DNA of 38,744 nucleotides from an uncultured Campylobacter sp. (GCF_938018035.1 NZ_CALIJF010000150.1:1-38744); one strand, 5' to 3'. Counted from the first letter of the stretch, positions 5,734 to 14,620 are shown. Numbers and translations: made by a program. Notes: generated from the letters alone by a model not told the origin.

Positions 5734-5961
5734 ATGAAATACAACAACTTCTTGCTGCACCATCTAAGCGTATATTATATGCTGATGGCGTGCTTTTACA
5801 ACTCTCTTACGGGCGTTTTTGCCAAGCTTTTGGGCGCGCAAATTTCATCGCTTGAGGTCGTACTCTTTCGCAATCTGCCGGGGCTTTTGATCCTACTTTA
5901 TAAAATCAAGGCTCGTCCGCGCGCGGCGCGCTCGTCGCGAATCGAAAGTAGGACGGCGTGA
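5734..5961 (+). pseudogene. truncated DMT/EamA transporter paralogue (N-terminal fragment)
   Basis: HLSVYYMLMACFYNSLTGVFAKLL...SSLEVVLFRN aligns by eye with HLGVYYMLVASFYFALNGALAKVM...SSAEIVFFRN of the next gene, then loses similarity and stops after 75 aa. Confidence 0.75.
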
Positions 5962-6890
5962 AGAAGAAATTTTACTCCGCGTTTTGGCTGAAACATCTGG
6001 GCGTTTATTATATGCTCGTAGCGAGCTTTTATTTCGCGCTAAACGGCGCTTTGGCCAAGGTCATGGCGGAGCGAATGAGCAGCGCCGAGATCGTGTTTTT
6101 CCGCAACGTCGTAGGCATCGCGATCGTGCTGTTTTCGCTAAGGCGGGTAAAAAATCTGGGCCCGGGCGGCAAGCCGTGGCTGCTCGCGTTTCGCGGCTTT
6201 ATCGGCAGCTGCGGTATCTTAGCGACCTTTTACAACATCGCTCACATCGATCTTGGCACCGCTTTTACCTTCCAAAAGACGGCGCCCATTTTCACCGCGC
6301 TATTTTCGGCGTTTTTCTTAGGCGAAAAGCTAAGCTCGCGCGGTTGGTTTGCGATACTGCTGGGCTTTGGCGGGATTTTACTCGTCGTGCGCCCGCACAT
6401 CGGCATCAGCGTAACCGACGCGGTGGGAATTTTCGGCGGCATGTGCGCGGGGCTTGCATACACGAGCGTGCGCGAGCTTCGCAAACACTACGCCACCAAC
6501 CTCATCGTGCTGGTCTTCGTCTCATCCGCTACCTTTCTAAGCGCGATGATGATGGCTGCGGGCTGGGCGCTCGGTGATAGCGAGGTTAAAATTTTAGGAC
6601 TTTTCAGCGGGGCAGATTTGGCGAGGCTTGCTTACTTCAACCCGCCAAGCCTTTTTGGCTGGGTGCTCGTGGCGCTTCTGGGCGTCAGCGGGATCTACTT
6701 TCAAATTTACATGACGCGCGCCTACGCCGCTTCGCGCAAAGCGGGTATCGTCGCTGCGATCAGCTATAGCGACATTCTCTTTAGCATGGCACTCGGCATT
6801 ATGCTAGGCGATCATCTGCCCGGTCCGATCGTGCTAGCGGGCATCGCGGTGGTGATTTTAAGCGGAATTCTAATCGCTCGTGAGCGCTAA
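5958..6890 (+). CDS. DMT (EamA-like) family transporter
   Basis: About 10 hydrophobic segments; FFR, APIFTALFSAFFLGEK and LGD motifs of EamA repeats; GTG start with AGGA RBS. Confidence 0.9.
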   Translation: MKKKFYSAFWLKHLGVYYMLVASFYFALNGALAKVMAERMSSAEIVFFRNVVGIAIVLFSLRRVKNLGPGGKPWLLAFRGFIGSCGILATFYNIAHIDLGTAFTFQKTAPIFTALFSAFFLGEKLSSRGWFAILLGFGGILLVVRPHIGISVTDAVGIFGGMCAGLAYTSVRELRKHYATNLIVLVFVSSATFLSAMMMAAGWALGDSEVKILGLFSGADLARLAYFNPPSLFGWVLVALLGVSGIYFQIYMTRAYAASRKAGIVAAISYSDILFSMALGIMLGDHLPGPIVLAGIAVVILSGILIARER

Positions 6891-7040: not shown

Positions 7041-7817
7041 ATGCATTTTATCGGTATCGACATCGGCTCTACCTCGTCAAAGGTCGCCGTTATGAACGAA
7101 CGCGGCGAATTTTGCGAGCTATTTTTGCTGCCAAGCGGCTTTAGCGCGGTCAAGGTCGCGCGCCAGATCAAGCAAGCCTTAGAGCAAAAAGGCTACGCAG
7201 AGGGCTTCGTGACGGCTACGGGCTACGGACGCGTTAGCGTAGAGTACGCGCAGCTTAGCATGAGCGAAATTTTATGCCACGGGCTTGGGGCACACTTTTT
7301 ATTTGAGCAAGACTGCACCGTCATCGATGTGGGCGGGCAAGACACCAAAGCGATCAAAATAGAAAACGGCAAACCAGCGGATTTTATCATGAACGACAAA
7401 TGCTCGGCGGGCACGGGTAAATTTTTAGAGATCAGTGCGGGCCGCTTGGGGCTTGAGCTAAGCGAAATTTACAAAACCGCCCGAAAAAATCCCGCGATTA
7501 AACTAAGCTCGACCTGCACTGTTTTTGCAGAAAGCGAGATCGTCTCGCTAAGCGCAAATGGGGCTGAAACTAGCGAGATCGCCTACGCTATCGTGGATTC
7601 CTCCGCGCACAAGGTCGCCTCACTCATCAAACGGCTGGAAAATCAAATTTACTTTTTAAGCGGCGGGCTTAGCAACGTGCCGCTCTTTAAACAGCTTCTA
7701 GGCGAGCATCTGGGGGCTGAAATTTTTACTCACGAAAACGCAATCTACTGCGGCGCGATGGGCGCTTCGCTTATCGGCGCACGCAAAGCAAACGAAATTT
7801 CAAAGGAGACGAGATGA
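7041..7817 (+). CDS. ATP-dependent [4Fe-4S] activase (HgdC/YjiL/BadF-BadG-BcrA-BcrD; DCCP-reductase type)
   Basis: GIDIGSTSSK, ATGYGR, IDVGGQDTK, MNDKCSAGTGKFLE, SSTCTVFAESE: ASKHA ATPase motifs with both cluster-ligating Cys. Confidence 0.93.
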   Translation: MHFIGIDIGSTSSKVAVMNERGEFCELFLLPSGFSAVKVARQIKQALEQKGYAEGFVTATGYGRVSVEYAQLSMSEILCHGLGAHFLFEQDCTVIDVGGQDTKAIKIENGKPADFIMNDKCSAGTGKFLEISAGRLGLELSEIYKTARKNPAIKLSSTCTVFAESEIVSLSANGAETSEIAYAIVDSSAHKVASLIKRLENQIYFLSGGLSNVPLFKQLLGEHLGAEIFTHENAIYCGAMGASLIGARKANEISKETR

Positions 7818-8923
7818 AGATGGATTTTGACGCGCTTAAAAAGCGTAACGCAATGGCTCTGCACGATCTAAAAGAGCAAGGCAAACACGTAGTTGGAATG
7901 TTTTGCACCTATTCGCCGAAGGAGCTTATTTACGCCGCGGGCGCCGTGCCGGTTGGGCTTTGCGCCTATGACGAAAGCCCGATAGATGCCGCTCATGCCG
8001 AGCTTCCGCGCAATCTTTGCCCGCTAATTAAAGCAAGCTACGGCTACGCGGTTACGAAAAAATGCCCCTATATGAACGCTAGCGATCTCGTCATAGGTGA
8101 AACGACCTGCGACGGCAAGAAAAAGATGTATGAGCTGCTTGCAAAGCATAAGGACGTCCACGTACTGCAACTGCCGAATATGACTGGCGGCAAGAGTTTG
8201 GAGCTTTTTACCGATGAGCTTAGGAAATTTCGCAAAGTTTTGGAGCAAAAATTTAATACGAAAATCACGGATGAAGCGCTACTTGATGCGGTGCAAATTT
8301 ACAACGAAGAGCGCGATGTGATGTTGGAGCTTTTAGAGCTTGGCAAACTAAATCCGATGCCGGTAGCGGGCAGCGAAATTCATCAAATTTCATTTGCGAG
8401 CGACTTCATATACGACAAGCAGGAGAAGCTTAAAATGATACGCGCCTACATAGCCGCCGCAAAGGAGATGACCCCGCCGAAAACTCGCAAAAAGCGGATC
8501 ATCATCACAGGCTGTCCAAGCGGAGGCGTGTATGAAAAGGTTATCAAGCAGATAGAGGAGCTGGGCGCGGACGTAGTGGCATTTGAAAACTGCTCCGGCA
8601 CCAAAGGCTATCAAAACCAAGTGCAAACGAAGGGCGATCTGGTAACAAATATCGCCGAGCGCTATCTCAAAATCCCCTGTTCGGTGATGTATCAAAACGA
8701 CGCACGCTCGGATATTATCAAGGAATTTATCCATGAGTATCAAGCGCACGGCGTCATCGACGTCGTGCTAAGCGGCTGCCACACCTACGCGATCGAGACG
8801 AACAAGATCAAAGAAGCCAGCCGTGAAGCTGGAGCAAACTATATGTCGCTGGAGACTGATTATTCAAAACAAGACGTCGGGCAAATTCGCACGCGCTTGG
8901 AAGCGTTTATCGAGCTACTTTAG
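7814..8923 (+). CDS. double-cubane cluster protein-like Fe-S reductase (YjiM / 2-hydroxyacyl-CoA dehydratase fold)
   Basis: FCTYSPKELIYAAGA, LPRNLCPLIK, ETTCDGKKKMYE, TGCP, ENCSG, IPCS, GCHTY, LETDYSKQDVGQIRTRLEAF. Single Cys-rich subunit with an ATGA overlap to the activase. Confidence 0.88.
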   Translation: MKMDFDALKKRNAMALHDLKEQGKHVVGMFCTYSPKELIYAAGAVPVGLCAYDESPIDAAHAELPRNLCPLIKASYGYAVTKKCPYMNASDLVIGETTCDGKKKMYELLAKHKDVHVLQLPNMTGGKSLELFTDELRKFRKVLEQKFNTKITDEALLDAVQIYNEERDVMLELLELGKLNPMPVAGSEIHQISFASDFIYDKQEKLKMIRAYIAAAKEMTPPKTRKKRIIITGCPSGGVYEKVIKQIEELGADVVAFENCSGTKGYQNQVQTKGDLVTNIAERYLKIPCSVMYQNDARSDIIKEFIHEYQAHGVIDVVLSGCHTYAIETNKIKEASREAGANYMSLETDYSKQDVGQIRTRLEAFIELL

Positions 8924-8995
8924 CGAGTCTTACTTGAAATTTTGAAATGAAGAATTTTCTAAATTTAAAAACAAACCAAAGAAAGGAGAGGTTGT

Positions 8996-9853
8996 ATGAA
9001 ATTTAAGGAGATAGACGAATCTCGTCGCGGCTTTTTAAAAGGAGCTTTAGCGGCAGCCGCCATCGCCGGACCGGAAGCAATGCTCGCTGGCTATACGCCA
9101 TTTAAGCCCGATTCGCTGCAGGTTTGGTCGTGCGGAGGACTGTCCGAAGCATTTAACGAGCTAAACGCCATTTATGAGTCAAGGACGGGACATAATATCC
9201 AATACACCGGCGCCTTTGCGGGTGCGCTCGGAAAGTCGCTACTGGCCTTGCAGGGCAAGACGGAGGTTTTCGGCGCTCGCGTTTTGGAGCTGTCTCAAAA
9301 ACTGCGTAAGGCTGGCCTTAGCCTCCGCTTTAGACCGCTATGTTTTACCGACTACGTTTTAGTAGTGCCAAAGGGCAATCCTGCGGGCGTTCGCGATCTA
9401 AAGGATTTGGCAGAGCCCGGCGTGCGGGTGATGCTGCCGCTAAGAGCTTCACCTCCTGGTAGCGGACCGGTAAAGGGAATTTTGAAAAATTCAGGTCTTA
9501 CAGGGCCCGTTATGAAAAATATGGTCGCCAACGGCTCATGCGTCATCCAGATGATGTGCGATCTGGTAGAGGGCAAGGGTGATGCGTCCATCATCGAAAA
9601 GCGCCTAACGACGCACGATAGGTTTAAAGACAAAATCGAATATATGCCTATCGACGAAAAGCTCATCCCGCCCGGTCCGCTTACATTTACGCTAAATATC
9701 ATGAAATACGTAAAAGACGAGAAGCTTGCCGATGACTTTGCGGACTTCGTCTGCTCGGACGGGCAGGAAATTTTCGAGCGGCACGGCTTTACCTCCATCC
9801 ATTCGGCACGCGGGCTTGAACTCATAGAAAGGTTTGGTGTAAAAGATGTTTAG
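8996..9853 (+). CDS. Tat-exported ModA-like (type II periplasmic binding fold) protein with five Cys
   Basis: SRRGFLK twin-arginine signal; LVVPKGNPAGVRDLKDLAEPGVRV and GQEIFERHGF are typical of the ModA/WtpA-like fold; strong AAGGAG RBS. Confidence 0.8.
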   Translation: MKFKEIDESRRGFLKGALAAAAIAGPEAMLAGYTPFKPDSLQVWSCGGLSEAFNELNAIYESRTGHNIQYTGAFAGALGKSLLALQGKTEVFGARVLELSQKLRKAGLSLRFRPLCFTDYVLVVPKGNPAGVRDLKDLAEPGVRVMLPLRASPPGSGPVKGILKNSGLTGPVMKNMVANGSCVIQMMCDLVEGKGDASIIEKRLTTHDRFKDKIEYMPIDEKLIPPGPLTFTLNIMKYVKDEKLADDFADFVCSDGQEIFERHGFTSIHSARGLELIERFGVKDV

Positions 9854-10622
9854 TATCGTAAATATGGCAAAGATGAAAAAAGTCTCTAGGCTAACTAAAA
9901 TTCGTCGATTGGTGCAGCTGATTTTTATCGGCGCGATCGGGCAATGGGCGTATTACGGAATTTTTAGATGCCCTTTTATCGTGCCTTTCGTAAACTGCCA
10001 ATCCTGTCCGATCGTTACGTGCTGGGGGCGGATCGCGACCGTGTTTTTCGGCTTTTGGCTGTTTATACCCGTGCTGGTTATTTTCCTTGGGCGCGCGTTT
10101 TGCGGCTGGCTTTGCCCGGGCGGATTCGTAAATCAAATGCTGGGCAAATTTGCCGCTTTTAAGCTCAAGCTAAAAAATAACAGGAAGCTACGATATGCGC
10201 AAATAGGCATGGTTCTAGCCTTTTTGCTTAGCGCGGGCGTGTATTTTATCTACGGCAATCCTCGCGTCATGATCCCTATCCGCACCAGCGACGAGTACTT
10301 AAACGCCGTTATCATGTCCTTTAAATTTTCCGACTGGTACTGGGCGGTTCGCACTGCCGTCGTCGTGGCCCTCATCGCCGCGTCCTTGATCGTCGCAAAT
10401 TTATGGTGCCGCTTCGCCTGTCCTAGCGGCGGCATAATGGAGCTGTTGCGTAAAATTTCAATATTTCGCGTTTATAAAACGAGCGCCTGCGATAACTGCA
10501 ACGCTTGTTTGCGCAAATGCGAAATGGGCACGAGACCGGACGAGATGAACTGCACGAACTGCGGCGATTGTATGGACGTTTGCCACGCAGACGCCATCAA
10601 ATTCGGAAGGAAAAAAGATTGA
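9846..10622 (+). CDS. NapH/MauN-like membrane 4Fe-4S protein
   Basis: About four TM segments, two CxxxCP motifs (CGWLCP, CRFACP), two CxxCxxCxxxC ferredoxin motifs at the C-terminus, and an extra N-terminal Cys cluster. The exact start Met is uncertain. Confidence 0.85.
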   Translation: MFSIVNMAKMKKVSRLTKIRRLVQLIFIGAIGQWAYYGIFRCPFIVPFVNCQSCPIVTCWGRIATVFFGFWLFIPVLVIFLGRAFCGWLCPGGFVNQMLGKFAAFKLKLKNNRKLRYAQIGMVLAFLLSAGVYFIYGNPRVMIPIRTSDEYLNAVIMSFKFSDWYWAVRTAVVVALIAASLIVANLWCRFACPSGGIMELLRKISIFRVYKTSACDNCNACLRKCEMGTRPDEMNCTNCGDCMDVCHADAIKFGRKKD

Positions 10623-11449
10623 TGAATTTTTTCGCCAAACCCTCTTTCGACAACCACCCCTGCTTTAGCAAAAAGGCGTCCGCCGCCTACGGGCGCGTGC
10701 ACCTTCCCGTAGCGCCACATTGCAATATCCAATGCAATTTTTGCAACCGCATCTACGACTGCGCCAACGAAAATCGCCCCGGCGTAACGGGGAGAGTGCA
10801 AAGCCCAGATGAGGCCGTGGAATACGTGGAAAATCTATTTAAATTTAGACAAGATATCTCTGTCATCGGTATCGCAGGGCCCGGGGATCCTATGTGCGAT
10901 GCCGACAAGACCCTAGCGACTTTTGAAAAATGCAAAGCCCGCTTCCCTCACGCCCTACTTTGCCTATCCACAAACGGCCTATCCCTGCCCGAGCACGTGG
11001 ATGATATCGTGCGGATCGGCGTGAGCCACGTGACGGTGACCGTTAATGCCGTAACGCCGGGCGTAGGCGGCAAAATTTATGCGTGGGTACGCCACAAAAA
11101 CAAAATTTACCACGGCGAAGAGGGCGCTAAAATTCTTGCGGAGCGCCAAGAGGAAGGAATTCGCAAGCTAAAAGAAGCCCGTATGATCGTAAAGATCAAT
11201 ACGGTCGTAATCCCCGGCGTCAATATGGATCACGTCCCACGTATCGCCAAAAAAGCCAAAGAGTGGCAAGCCGATATCATGAACTGCATGGCGATGATCC
11301 CCGTGCATGACACCCCTTTTGCAAATATCAAATCGCCCTCGAATGAAGAAATTCGCAGCATGCGAAAGCTGATCGGCAGCTCCATTCATCAAATGACTCA
11401 CTGCAGCAGATGCCGCGCCGACGCATGCGGCAAGCTTTGCGAGAAATGA
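10622..11449 (+). CDS. nifB: NifB-family radical SAM protein (stand-alone SAM domain, no NifX domain)
   Basis: HPC, CNIQCNFC, ENRP, AGPG, TVTVN and CSRCRADACG motifs. Start placed at ATG 10622 (TGATG coupling, GGAAGG upstream); 275 aa. Confidence 0.9.
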   Translation: MNFFAKPSFDNHPCFSKKASAAYGRVHLPVAPHCNIQCNFCNRIYDCANENRPGVTGRVQSPDEAVEYVENLFKFRQDISVIGIAGPGDPMCDADKTLATFEKCKARFPHALLCLSTNGLSLPEHVDDIVRIGVSHVTVTVNAVTPGVGGKIYAWVRHKNKIYHGEEGAKILAERQEEGIRKLKEARMIVKINTVVIPGVNMDHVPRIAKKAKEWQADIMNCMAMIPVHDTPFANIKSPSNEEIRSMRKLIGSSIHQMTHCSRCRADACGKLCEK

Positions 11450-11475
11450 AGACCTGCTTTTAGCGGGTCTTTTAT
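11449..11475 (+). terminator. probable intrinsic terminator closing the nifB cluster
   Basis: AAGACCTGCT-TTT-AGCGGGTCTT stem (one G-U pair) followed by TTAT, directly after the stop. Confidence 0.65.
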
Positions 11476-11715: not shown

Positions 11716-13266
11716 ATGGAAAACGTTTCAAGACGTGATCTGCTCAAAATGAGCCTAGTTGGCGCGGGTGCTTTAGCGCTCGGCTCCGTAAACGCAAATG
11801 CTGCGGTTAACGCTAAAGACGTCAAATTTGACGAAGAGTGGGACGTAGTCATCGTGGGCTCTGGTTTTGCAGGACTAGCAGCCGGTATCACCGCAGCCGA
11901 AAAGGGCAATAAAGTCCTAATCCTAGAAAAGATGGGACGCGTAGGCGGTAACTCCGTAATTAACGGCGGCATATTCGCCGTTCCAAACAGCGACAAACAA
12001 AAAGCAGAAGGCATCAAAGATAGCAACGAGCTATTTATCAAAGACTGCCTAAAAGCCGGCCGCGGCCTAAACCACGTAGATCTAATCGACACCATCGCTA
12101 CTCGCGCGCAAGACGCATATAAACTAACTCTAAAATGCGGCGCTAAATACATAGATAAAGTTACTCACGCAGGCGGACACAGCGTACCTAGATCGCTTCA
12201 GACCGCTAACGGCTCGGGCTCAGGTATCGTTCAGCCGATGGTAGAATACTTTAAAAATCTACAAGGCTGCGAGCTAAGACAAAGAGCTAAATTTGACGAG
12301 TTCGTACTCGGCGAAGACGGCGGCGTAGACGGAGTGATCATCAGAGAGGATTATAAATTTGATCCAAAGAGCCAAAAAGACGACGCCGAAAACACTACCG
12401 GAACTAAAAAAACTATAAAAGCTAAAAAAGGCGTAGTACTAGCTGCAGGAGGATTTTGCCGCGACGTATTCTTTAGACAAGTCCAAGATCCATCTATCTT
12501 GCCTACTACGGATAGCACCAACCATCCGGGAGCAACCGCAGGCGCTATGAAAGAGGCATTTAGAATCGGCGCAACTCCAGTGCAGCTAAGCTGGATACAA
12601 TTCGGCCCATGGGCATGCCCTGATGAAAAAGGCTTTGGCGTAGGCTCTATGTTTAACGTAAACGGAAGCTTCCGCTACGGTATCTCAGTCGATCCAAGAA
12701 CCGGCAAACGCTATATGAACGAACTAGCGGACCGCCGCACCCGCTCTCAAGCTATGTTTAAAGTAATCGACGCAAAAGCCGATATCTATCCGATCAACTT
12801 CTGCGATAGCGATGGCGTAAAAAATATGGTCATACCTGAGCACTACACCAAACCGCTAGAATCAGGCGTACTAAAGAAATTTGAAACTCTAGACGAACTA
12901 GCCGCAGCTTATAAAATCCCTGCCGCAGAGCTAAAAAAGACCGTCGAGCGATATAATAGCTTCGTTAAATCAGGCAAAGACGAAGACTTTGGCAAACCTA
13001 TGGATAAAACCACTACAAACGGCGTAGATATCTCTAAACCGCCTTTCTACGCTATGCGCGGTACGCCAAAACTCCACCACACCATGGGCGGTATCGATAT
13101 CAATACCAAAGCTCAGGTTATATCTCTACAAACAGAGATGCCGATCCCAAGACTATTTGCCGCAGGTGAGATCACAGGCGGCGTACACGGAGCTAGCCGT
13201 TTAGGTAGCGTGGCGATAGCTGACTGCTTAACGTTTGGTATGATAGCCGGAGAGAATATAGGCTAA
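11716..13266 (+). CDS. fccA: Tat-exported flavocytochrome c flavin subunit (FccA/Fcc3/UrdA-like reductase)
   Basis: SRRDLLK Tat signal; VVIVGSGFAGLAA FAD-binding motif; GGNS, GGHSVPR, HHTMGG and GEITGGVHGASRLG motifs. Confidence 0.85.
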   Translation: MENVSRRDLLKMSLVGAGALALGSVNANAAVNAKDVKFDEEWDVVIVGSGFAGLAAGITAAEKGNKVLILEKMGRVGGNSVINGGIFAVPNSDKQKAEGIKDSNELFIKDCLKAGRGLNHVDLIDTIATRAQDAYKLTLKCGAKYIDKVTHAGGHSVPRSLQTANGSGSGIVQPMVEYFKNLQGCELRQRAKFDEFVLGEDGGVDGVIIREDYKFDPKSQKDDAENTTGTKKTIKAKKGVVLAAGGFCRDVFFRQVQDPSILPTTDSTNHPGATAGAMKEAFRIGATPVQLSWIQFGPWACPDEKGFGVGSMFNVNGSFRYGISVDPRTGKRYMNELADRRTRSQAMFKVIDAKADIYPINFCDSDGVKNMVIPEHYTKPLESGVLKKFETLDELAAAYKIPAAELKKTVERYNSFVKSGKDEDFGKPMDKTTTNGVDISKPPFYAMRGTPKLHHTMGGIDINTKAQVISLQTEMPIPRLFAAGEITGGVHGASRLGSVAIADCLTFGMIAGENIG

Positions 13267-13329
13267 TTTGCGGCGTCTTTCGGACGCTTTTTGCGGAGCT
13301 TGCTAAAATTTTGCTTAGCAGACTATTTT

Positions 13330-13455
13330 GTCTAGCCTGCGCAAAATTTTAGCCACGCAACCTCAAAAATCGCCTCGAAATACTTGCAAATCTTATTTTG
13401 TATCGCAGGTCAAATTTAAGATTAAATTTGAAAATTCGGTCTGCGATACTTTTAA
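13330..13455. repeat. dispersed intergenic repeat, copy 1
   Basis: GTCTAGCCTGCGCAAAATTTTAGC...AAAAATCGCCTCGAAATACTTGCAAATCTTATTTTGTATCGCAGG...TCTGCGATACTTTTA matches 17777-17880. Confidence 0.85.
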
Positions 13456-13511
13456 ATTTGAAGCCGAATTTGCAGTTAAATTTGTAAATTTGACATCCGA
13501 AAGGAATTCGC

Positions 13512-13952
13512 ATGAAACATAAAGCGTTTCTCGCCTTGTGCGCATCTATGCTACTATGCTCTTTTGCATTTAGTGCAGAAGCCTTAGGCGCAAAGATAAC
13601 GTCTTTAGTCGATCTTAACGTCACCGATGAACTGCGAGCCAAACACCCGCTAAAGCCTCATCATGAAAAGCTAAGCTTCACCTGTCTTGATTGTCACGAA
13701 GGACAAGGAAACGACGCTAGTAAATTTAAATCTATCGGCGATAAAGGCTGTTTATCCTGTCACGGCGACAAGAAAAAGATAGCTAAAAGACTAGAATACA
13801 TGGATCTGCTAAAAGCAAATCCCCACAACTCGGTTCACGACGGCCCTACGCTATACTGCGACGAGTGCCACAACGAGCATAAAAAATCAACCAATATGTG
13901 CACGGAGTGCCACGAACACGAAGTTCCGCAATGGATGGGGGTAACGCCATGA
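13512..13952 (+). CDS. fccB: periplasmic tetraheme cytochrome c (c3-like, FccB type)
   Basis: Sec-type signal peptide and four CxxCH motifs (CLDCH, CLSCH, CDECH, CTECH), plus NPHNSVH. Confidence 0.88.
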   Translation: MKHKAFLALCASMLLCSFAFSAEALGAKITSLVDLNVTDELRAKHPLKPHHEKLSFTCLDCHEGQGNDASKFKSIGDKGCLSCHGDKKKIAKRLEYMDLLKANPHNSVHDGPTLYCDECHNEHKKSTNMCTECHEHEVPQWMGVTP

Positions 13953-14620
13953 AAATTTCAAAGAAAGTACTAGCGCTTATTATATTGGTAAGCGGCATTA
14001 TAGGGTTTTTGGTCGTACTGCCCGTACATTACACCCTAGAAGAAACTAGCGGAGAGAAGTTTTGCGTAGTATGCCACGAGATGGATCCTATGGTTATAGC
14101 TTATAGTAACGACGTACATAGCGGCAAAGGCAAAAGCGGAGTAAGGGCTAAATGCGTAGACTGCCACATACCTCACGACAACCTAGCCAAATACGTCCTA
14201 GTTAAAGCCAAAAACGGACTAATGGAGGGATATATTCATTTCTTCAAAGACCCCGAGGCTATAGACTGGCATAAAAATAGAGAGAAAAGAGAGCACTTCG
14301 TATTTGATAACGGTTGCGTTAGCTGCCATACGAATTTGGTAGATAATAAACTAACAAGCCCGCAAGCTCAAAAGATGCATGCTCACTATCAAAGCTTGCT
14401 AAATACGGGTAAGCAACTAACCTGCGCTAGCTGTCACGCCGAGGTAGGCCACAGCGGGCTAAACAATATGCTAAACTACTGGAAGCCTGAATACAAAATC
14501 TACGAAAAGAAAGCTGCAATCAAAAAAGAAGAGATAAAAAAGGCTTATTTCGGGGAGGATTATGTGGGGCCGAAAGAGGTGAAGACTGAAGATAAAGAAG
14601 GCAATGCCACCAAAAAGTAG
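13949..14620 (+). CDS. fccC: NapC/NirT-family membrane tetraheme quinol dehydrogenase (FccC type)
   Basis: N-terminal TM helix; CVVCHEM, CVDCHIP, CVSCH, CASCH. Start moved to ATG 13949 (ATGA overlap). Confidence 0.9.
   Translation: MKISKKVLALIILVSGIIGFLVVLPVHYTLEETSGEKFCVVCHEMDPMVIAYSNDVHSGKGKSGVRAKCVDCHIPHDNLAKYVLVKAKNGLMEGYIHFFKDPEAIDWHKNREKREHFVFDNGCVSCHTNLVDNKLTSPQAQKMHAHYQSLLNTGKQLTCASCHAEVGHSGLNNMLNYWKPEYKIYEKKAAIKKEEIKKAYFGEDYVGPKEVKTEDKEGNATKK

Follow-up and report, generated by a model that had tools for sequence, protein, structure and literature searches.

A conserved trio of NifB, a Tat-signal ModA-fold protein and a NapH-like protein in Campylobacter suggests an as yet undescribed, possibly selenium-related, use for NifB

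We analyzed a 38,744-nucleotide stretch of DNA (NZ_CALIJF010000150.1; hereafter the window) from an oral Campylobacter whose 2.5-Mb assembly is rated 99.96% complete. Three consecutive genes in this window encode a ModA-fold protein with a twin-arginine translocation (Tat) signal, a NapH-like membrane iron-sulfur protein and a stand-alone NifB. The three are a conserved unit, which we call the trio, and the genome that carries it has neither nitrogenase nor nitrogenase-like proteins. Together, these observations suggest that NifB has a so far undescribed use here, one that may concern selenium. Directly upstream lie an ATP-dependent activase and a double-cubane-cluster protein (DCCP), a pair shown below to be a recurrent but optional neighbor of the trio.

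The trio and its NifB

From 241 relatives of the ModA-fold protein in metagenomes we kept 80 loci. These fall into 43 lineages when grouped at 85% identity of that protein, and 19 of the lineages are well flanked, with at least 3 kb on each side. The NapH-like gene directly follows the ModA-fold gene in 75 of the 80 loci, and the remaining 5 run out within 102 nt. A NifB gene occurs in 55 loci. Of the 25 without it, 18 stop less than 900 nt beyond the NapH-like gene and 7 leave enough space, which puts NifB in 55 of the 62 loci where it could fit. Because the order recurs in dozens of unrelated contigs, the arrangement lies far beyond chance. Across phyla the trio proteins are about 50 to 60% identical. 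The close relatives of the ModA-fold protein (52 to 57% identity, almost constant length) come from records of Colibacter, Megasphaera, Selenomonadales, Sporomusa, Anaerospora, Syntrophus, Syntrophorhabdaceae, Syntrophobacteraceae and Geobacteraceae; the carriers in Negativicutes, Syntrophus and Geobacter are known by contig context only. In Negativicutes-type loci TatC follows the trio. The family is small and sharply bounded, with 20 proteins at E <= 1e-30 among 1.84 billion representatives, and at its edge identity falls from about 43% to about 30%, where ordinary SBP_bac_11 proteins begin.

Within the phylum, we searched 401 Campylobacterota genomes from 63 genera, including 24 from the window's genus and 79 from its sister genus. 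Close copies of the ModA-fold protein (at least 83% identity) occur only in these two genera, in 14/24 and 36/79 genomes. Elsewhere in the sample the relatives are 26 to 30% identical and were found in three genomes of three other genera. The trio in Campylobacter looks horizontally acquired and accessory. The short NifB follows the same distribution: in the window's genus exactly those 14 carriers have it, and in the sister genus 35 of 36 do. All 14 copies of both genes in the window's genus are open and 91 to 100% identical. In two lineages NifB and the ModA-fold protein, Tat signal included, share one open frame: a 562-aa protein (P0245) in one, and the metagenome loci L171 (1525-3222) and L169 (about 400-600) in the other. 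In the two loci the joint frame keeps the Tat motif, with an internal AAGGAGG-ATG ahead of it, and could therefore yield both a fusion and a separate exported ModA-fold protein.

The NifB of the trio scores 328.2 bits on TIGR01290, below the equivalog cut-off of 343.65, because it lacks the NifX domain and only model positions 9-278 of 441 can be matched. Compared with solved structures, it matches 6y1x at E = 3.7e-80 and 7bi7 and 7jmb at 5e-72, and a residue-by-residue alignment places the motifs HPC, CNIQCxxC, AGPG, C-STNG and CxxCRADA in register with 6y1x and 7bi7. It is 51 to 58% identical to NifX-fused proteins named NifB in their source records. Nine residues are invariant among 45 trio-linked sequences (H12, C14, H27, C34, C38, C41, C114, C261 and C264), and a tenth, C47, is kept in 98%. 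C34, C38 and C41 form the radical SAM CX3CX2C motif; some of the other invariant cysteines and histidines are presumably ligands of the K1 and K2 clusters. Judged by these features, the protein is a genuine NifB.

No partner of a nitrogenase accompanies it. The window holds no nifH, nifD, nifK, nifE or nifN. In the whole genome there were 0 matches to PF00148 (NifD/K/E/N, Mar, Cfb, Bch) and 0 to PF02579 (NifX/NafY); PF00142 gave three weak matches in two genes that NCBIfam places as ParA-type and ApbC-type ATPases, so there is no true NifH. TIGR01290 found this nifB only, in a single copy. The first-pass annotation had presumed a host without nitrogenase, and the genome indeed holds no nitrogenase or nitrogenase-like locus, Mar and Cfb included, that this NifB could serve. 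A family survey agreed, with PF00148 in 0/37 genomes of the window's genus and in 1/38 of the sister genus, at 18.8 bits and below cut-off; real nitrogenase sets exist in other genera of the same survey. Other Campylobacterota carry a different, long NifB (44 to 48% identity, frames of 452 to 553 aa). We built a quick, unrooted FastTree of 134 rows, reduced from 166 by removing near-duplicates (over 92% identity to a retained row). A branch with 94% local support separates all 24 NifX-fused NifBs, joined by 2 trio-linked rows that are both flagged as long branches, from the other 29 of 31 trio-linked NifBs and all 79 short database matches. The tree is no more than suggestive.

The trio and the upstream pair occupy positions 7041-11449 of the window, with the following features:

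7041..7817, + strand: HgdC/BcrAD-type ATP-dependent activase, the DCCP reductase partner (258 aa; PF01869 1.5e-50; TIGR00241)
7814..8923, + strand: double-cubane-cluster reductase, DCCP (369 aa; NF040772 482.7 bits, model 1-372 of 372)
8924..8995, + strand: AT-rich spacer of 72 nt, ending in a ribosome-binding site, AAAGGAGAGG, ahead of the third gene's ATG
8996..9853, + strand: Tat-signal ModA-fold protein (285 aa; PF13531 2.6e-39; signal region, residues 1-37)
9846..10622, + strand: NapH-like four-helix membrane Fe-S protein (258 aa; Fer4_5 twice plus ferredoxin motifs)
10622..11449, + strand: stand-alone NifB, radical SAM domain only (275 aa; TIGR01290 6.9e-98)
11448..11472, + strand: terminator-like hairpin after nifB (-15.3 kcal/mol, z -3.1), followed by UUUUAU

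This layout is the one first described for the locus: five co-oriented genes, overlapping junctions at 7814, 9846 and 10622, a single 72-nt gap and a terminator, all of which were recovered by open reading frame (ORF) listing and folding, the last as a terminator-like hairpin, and the family assigned to each gene was borne out by Pfam and NCBIfam scores. By ORF listing and family searches all five genes are intact. The stop/start overlaps measure 4 nt (7814-7817), 8 nt (9846-9853) and 1 nt (10622). The nifB frame itself is open over 10505-11449, and its internal ATG at 10622 gives the 275-aa protein. The spacer at 8924-8995 is the sole gap among the five genes; its ribosome-binding site is strong, and a consensus promoter and terminator scan found no promoter-like site on the + strand within it. 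That scan, which is pattern based, did not list the hairpin at 11448-11472; in a shuffle test, 2 of 200 shuffles folded equally well.

The double-cubane pair, an optional neighbor

The first two genes are ordinary members of their families. The activase scores 224 bits on TIGR00241 (cut-off 125), and its gene overlaps the start of the DCCP gene. The DCCP matches NF040772 end to end, well over the cut-off of 350 bits, with seven cysteines (C31, 50, 69, 99, 260, 289 and 322) in family order. Their spacings differ by 1 to 6 residues from the regular expression printed by Haft and Gwadz, which does not match.

The first-pass annotation read all five genes as a single system. The pair and the trio do meet elsewhere: a DCCP and/or an activase adjoins the trio in 13/80 loci, 10/43 lineages and 7/19 well-flanked lineages, upstream or downstream and in varying gene orders, and all 10 of the neighboring DCCPs tested pass NF040772. 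Among genomes with the window's synteny (EamA, activase, DCCP, trio, flavocytochrome), however, six sister genomes have a broken pair, at loci L196-L201 in genomes G391, G272, G396, G138, G325 and G265. Four (G391, G272, G138 and G325) have one common deletion that joins activase residues 1-173 to DCCP residues from about 264/270 to 369. In G265 activase 1-92 is joined to DCCP 267-369, and G396 has an internal deletion in the DCCP and a broken activase. The trio is open in all six, at 91 to 99% identity, and none of the six has another DCCP at E <= 1e-30. In C. concisus-type genomes the pair is absent or far from the trio (in G112 at 1587 kb, against 744 kb for the trio), and it is 49 to 54% identical to the pair in the window. 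Among the 79 genomes of the sister genus, 22 have the trio and a DCCP, 14 the trio only, 15 a DCCP only and 28 neither. NF040772 proteins occur in 95 of the 401 Campylobacterota genomes and in 20 of 63 genera, whereas close copies of the trio's ModA-fold protein are confined to two. These data show that the pair is a recurrent but optional neighbor of the trio.

An obligatory five-gene system, in which the DCCP is a client of NifB or the activase is the ModA-fold protein's obligatory reductant, is therefore hard to maintain. In its favor are the adjacent, co-oriented, overlapping genes of the window, the repeated meeting of pair and trio in several gene orders, and the likeness of the DCCP's [8Fe-9S] double cubane to the pair of clusters that NifB takes as substrate. 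Against it stand the six genomes with an intact trio and no intact DCCP, the 14 trio-only and 15 DCCP-only genomes, and the 12 of 19 well-flanked lineages without an adjacent DCCP; NF040772 is also found in E. coli, which we take to lack NifB. Because of the deletions, the unlinking or absence in C. concisus and the wider range of NF040772, it is also unlikely that the DCCP receives a NifB-made cluster, as had been suggested. We hold a five-gene system to be very improbable.

Other genes flank this region. Past a 266-nt spacer after the hairpin, positions 11716-14620 of the window hold a Tat-signal flavocytochrome c (TIGR01813, 462 bits), a 146-aa multi-CxxCH cytochrome and an NrfH/NapC-like cytochrome, which look like a separate periplasmic reductase module of unassigned substrate; this module keeps its position beside the trio in the window's genus. 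Upstream, a 75-aa ORF at 5734-5961 resembles the start of an EamA-type permease and abuts a 310-aa EamA-like gene at 5958-6890. Relatives hold two full tandem EamA paralogues at this site (45% and 96 to 99% matches), and the upstream copy seems truncated in the window. Further neighbors are proBA and a cystine ABC system. In two C. concisus loci (L186 and L188) the region upstream of the trio is variable: some records have a type I restriction-modification system there, and another has a 1256-aa unknown protein. A convergent metal-sensor-like two-component system lies downstream.

A proposed role for the trio

The ModA-fold protein belongs to SBP_bac_11. A hydrophobic stretch comes after its N-terminal twin-arginine motif, SRRGFLK: SRRGFLKGALAAAAIAG. 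The RR pair is invariant in 36/36 aligned sequences, and RRx[FL][LIVM] is present in 63/66; the Tat model TIGR01409 is marginal, at 16.3 against a cut-off of 16.7. With this signal the protein is a probable Tat substrate. Its closest fold in the PDB, by Foldseek, is the ModA-type 4kd5 (E = 3.7e-18, TM 0.84), a type II binding-protein fold, and a profile search links it to ModA at E = 1e-11. A search of the ESM Atlas returned only clusters of the kind "ModA-like, Tat signal". An AlphaFold2 model has a mean pLDDT of 80.6, with only residues 1-37 below 50. Three cysteines, C46 (VWSCGG), C116 (PLCFT) and C182 (SCV), are invariant in 66/66 sequences; the model puts them at strand ends or helix starts, where they would line the cleft. 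By the 4kd5 alignment, and with ModA numbering as we take it to be, C46 lies within the first anion-binding motif of ModA, and the Ser two residues further on is replaced by Gly. Across the 80 loci there was no split or stop at these three positions of the kind expected for selenocysteine variants. The five neighboring genes include no ABC permease or ATPase, and the nearest ABC genes, at 18-21 kb, are cystine type. Tat signals are typical of cofactor-loaded proteins, and the ModA-fold protein looks like one.

The NapH-like protein falls below both napH models tried, with 61.4 bits on TIGR02163 (cut-off 213) and 58.8 on NF007013 (cut-off 234). Its neighbors are the ModA-fold protein and NifB, with no NapG-type partner or nap operon context. 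In 53/53 sequences 16 cysteines are invariant: C42/C51/C54/C59, C86/C90 and C188/C192 (two CX3CP motifs), and two CxxCxxCxxxC motifs. The first four lie in a segment between predicted helices 1 and 2 that contains 1 Lys or Arg, against 5, 8 and 12 in the segments assigned to the inside, which suggests that the segment faces outward. A complex prediction for the NapH-like and mature ModA-fold proteins scored 0.01 against a mark of 0.32 and is evidence neither way.

A further line of evidence, outside the reading of the first-pass annotation, is the selenium context of the trio in other phyla. The putative selenium transporter YedE (TIGR04112) was identified in five of five trio neighbors tested for it (in L143, L122, L148, L173 and L174), at 464 to 505 bits against a cut-off of 200. 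SelD is beside the trio in L137 and L174, YedF in one or two lineages including L174, and a TIGR01977 desulfurase (EF2568-type, near SclA) in L142. A SaoP-like permease adjoins it in L116, and SaoA/SaoP-like ABC genes lie near some trios. The order in L174 is DCCP, activase, unknown, trio, YedE, x, desulfurase, YedF, x, SelD. We take YedE and YedF to be the FdhT and FdhU of C. jejuni. A sulfur or organosulfur role, considered on the strength of Pfam matches to Sulf_transp, rhodanese and aminotransferase V, was replaced once NCBIfam put the same genes in selenium-specific families. A bulk family scan of 150 of the 259 neighbor ORFs gave a tally dominated by generic ABC ATPases. In selenium-rich loci, two proteins beside the trio, of 498 aa (L174, 1613-3109) and 487 aa (L142, 12730-14193), have no NCBIfam match at 1e-12. 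The window's own genome has a SelD with one in-frame TGA, probably itself a selenoprotein, and a YedE-family putative selenium transporter gene on another small contig (the two coordinates are G000:C187:699-1598 and G000:C425:575-1594).

We propose the following chain of events. The stand-alone NifB would build a complex Fe-S cluster, and the likeliest kind is a NifB-co-type [8Fe-9S-C] cluster. Insertion would take place in the cytoplasm, into the cleft of the ModA-fold protein, with the three invariant cysteines in place of the oxyanion site, and the folded holoprotein would then leave by the Tat pathway. At the outer face of the membrane its partner would be the NapH-like protein, in which electrons may move across or along the membrane through the cytoplasmic ferredoxin domain, both CX3CP motifs and the four-cysteine loop. 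The activase and DCCP would be a separate cytoplasmic, ATP-driven low-potential reductase, often beside the trio, which does not need it. The role of the trio would be the capture or reduction of selenium (or another chalcogen) outside the cytoplasm, feeding selenoprotein synthesis. Its company of YedE, YedF, SelD, an EF2568/SclA-like desulfurase and DCCPs in other phyla makes a selenium or chalcogen role the most likely one. The idea is also chemically reasonable, because the ninth sulfur that NifB incorporates in vitro comes from sulfite, with selenite also accepted, and because the reduction of elemental selenium needs very low potentials. We put the whole chain at slightly less than even odds, a probability of about 0.45; cluster making by NifB is its strongest link and the selenium role its weakest. 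A bolder version is quite unlikely as a whole. It would make the ModA-fold protein the first complex Fe-S (carbide-type) cluster protein to act outside the cytoplasm, a NifB-matured enzyme supplied with electrons by the NapH-like protein, capturing or reducing scarce selenium (elemental selenium or selenite, for example) at very low potential and handing it to YedE, YedF and SelD. The trio would then be a missing dedicated means of selenium acquisition in anaerobes, with the ATP-driven DCCP as a frequent cytoplasmic helper.

Several observations weigh against this chain. Selenium genes adjoin the trio in only 7 of the 43 lineages, counting any lineage with at least one; none is adjacent in the window or in C. 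concisus, and the genome's own YedE (424 bits) and SelD sit on contigs other than the trio's. The alignment of the ModA-fold protein has no invariant His. That its cysteines line the cleft was judged from secondary-structure positions and the ModA alignment, and the outward orientation of the four-cysteine segment comes from our own reading of hydropathy and charge, with a first helix that is weakly hydrophobic. Seven loci have room for NifB and lack an adjacent copy. In C. concisus, stops or splits affect the ModA-fold gene in 7/36 genomes (G090, G224, G164, G064, G107, G281 and G151) and NifB in 5/35 (G048, G183, G217 and G133 among them), and the NapH-like gene is broken in three C. concisus-type metagenome contigs (L177, L185 and L187); these counts of stops, splits and frameshifts do not tell decay from sequencing error or phase-variable tracts. 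The trio seems to be partly decaying there and therefore dispensable in that species.

Some of these points favor a thiol relay in which the ModA-fold protein holds no cluster. Its cysteines would themselves bind Se (or As, Sb or Te), the four-cysteine loop of the NapH-like protein would re-reduce them, and NifB would serve another client, such as the NapH-like protein or a cytoplasmic enzyme. Three invariant cysteines without an invariant His would suit such a relay, as would the oxyanion binding of the ModA family, the neighboring YedE, YedF and SelD, the four-cysteine segment with its 1 Lys or Arg against 8 in the next loop, and the 7 loci that hold the other two genes without an adjacent NifB. 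What it fails to explain is the adjacency of NifB in 55/62 loci, the exact co-occurrence in Campylobacter and the NifB-ModA-fold frames. Also against it, an invariant Tat signal is typical of cofactor-loaded proteins, and NapH-type proteins work without NifB in most organisms. We regard the relay as unlikely. The ModA fold would fit a molybdate or tungstate unit, where the ModA-fold protein binds the oxyanion and the NifB-like and NapH-like proteins make or reduce a Mo/W(-Fe-S) species for an enzyme such as formate dehydrogenase. So would names in source records (for example, "molybdate transport system substrate-binding protein"), the occurrence in 6 lineages of formate dehydrogenase alpha subunits or Mo-pterin oxidoreductases close to the trio, and weak MoaA-type matches of the radical SAM protein. 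However, the ModA-fold protein reaches only 26.1 bits on the modA model TIGR01256 (cut-off 62.5), C46 and a Ser-to-Gly change presumably sit in the first anion-binding motif, no ModBC adjoins, an apo binding protein would not need a Tat signal, and for the radical SAM protein the NifB score is 328 bits and the MoaA score 54. This makes a Mo/W unit highly improbable. We give least credence to the reading that these genes are an island gained by horizontal transfer, without function or in decay in this host. The patchy distribution in the phylum, with close copies in two genera and 26 to 30% relatives elsewhere, the variable region with a type I restriction system that adjoins the C. concisus trio, and the stops and frameshifts in some C. 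concisus copies speak for it; the 14/14 open, 91 to 100% identical copies of the ModA-fold and NifB genes in the window's genus, even where the DCCP pair is deleted, and the intact genes of the window speak against it.

The trio would tie NifB to a different kind of client in organisms that apparently have neither nitrogenase nor Mar, and its carriers include common flora of the human mouth and gut (records of Campylobacter, Veillonella and Megasphaera). If the ModA-fold protein carries a NifB-made cluster, nitrogenase-type cluster chemistry would reach the periplasm and a new protein fold, and NifB research would gain a small, simple client. In that case the trio could also help to explain why double-cubane reductases track selenium use, and could address how anaerobes obtain selenium: a 2026 review notes that prokaryotes have no identified transport system for selenium that is both specific and of high affinity (PMC13188914).

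Comparison with known systems

Our literature searches found no printed description of the trio or of the five-gene system, and the text of Lin et al. 2015, supplementary tables aside, has none either, in agreement with the initial statement that no system of this composition had been characterized. Bacterial NifB was previously known solely as a nitrogenase maturase, as described in one report (bioRxiv 10.1101/2023.10.20.563283), and more recently as a maturase of Mar enzymes (bioRxiv 10.64898/2026.08.20.746119). In the NifB to NifX/NifEN to NifDK route of nitrogenase assembly, the radical SAM core is shared with the trio's NifB. The trio's NifB differs in having no NifX domain, in a genome without NifEN, NifDK, NifH or NifX, and in its partners, a ModA-fold and a NapH-like protein. 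There are also precedents in which a NifB homologue that lacks the NifX domain provides [8Fe-9S-C]-type clusters for clients other than nitrogenase. These are the MCR activation complex (PMC12176620) in methanogens, where NifB is essential (bioRxiv 10.1101/2023.10.20.563283), and MarDK of the methylthio-alkane reductase MarHDK, served by MarB (bioRxiv 10.64898/2026.08.20.746119). Their clients are cytoplasmic NifDK-family or McrC/Mmp proteins, whereas here there is no PF00148 protein and the candidate client has a binding-protein fold and a Tat signal. None of these precedent clients has such a fold, a Tat signal or a NapH-like partner.

The other two trio proteins also depart from their relatives. 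With ModA, TupA and WtpA the ModA-fold protein shares the oxyanion-binding fold; unlike them it fails the modA model, has a Tat signal and three invariant cysteines that probably line the cleft, and is without an adjacent ABC partner. The NapH-like protein has in common with the NapGH, NosGH and MauMN modules four helices, two CX3CP motifs, a two-cluster ferredoxin domain and a partner with a predicted Tat export route, but it has an extra invariant four-cysteine segment, and its partner has a ModA fold instead of being a NapG-type polyferredoxin.

The activase and DCCP belong by score and pairing to the known DCCP/DCCP-R family (NF040772; YjiM/YjiL in E. coli), and the only new feature is their recurrent placement beside a NifB trio. 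An association of DCCPs with selenium has been reported: according to Haft and Gwadz, 955 of 970 NF040772 proteins are in SelD genomes, and DCCPs adjoin the selenoprotein SAO locus in 21 of 52 species (bioRxiv 10.1101/2022.07.06.499078). The loci described here likewise place DCCPs by a selenium-linked unit, a trio that itself neighbors YedE, YedF and SelD. The trio differs in lying outside the nine-gene SAO set, and the main text of Haft and Gwadz has 0 mentions of NifB, NapH or twin-arginine. With the selenium uptake candidates YedE and YedF, found beside the trio in some lineages, the link is by neighborhood only; the proteins are unrelated.

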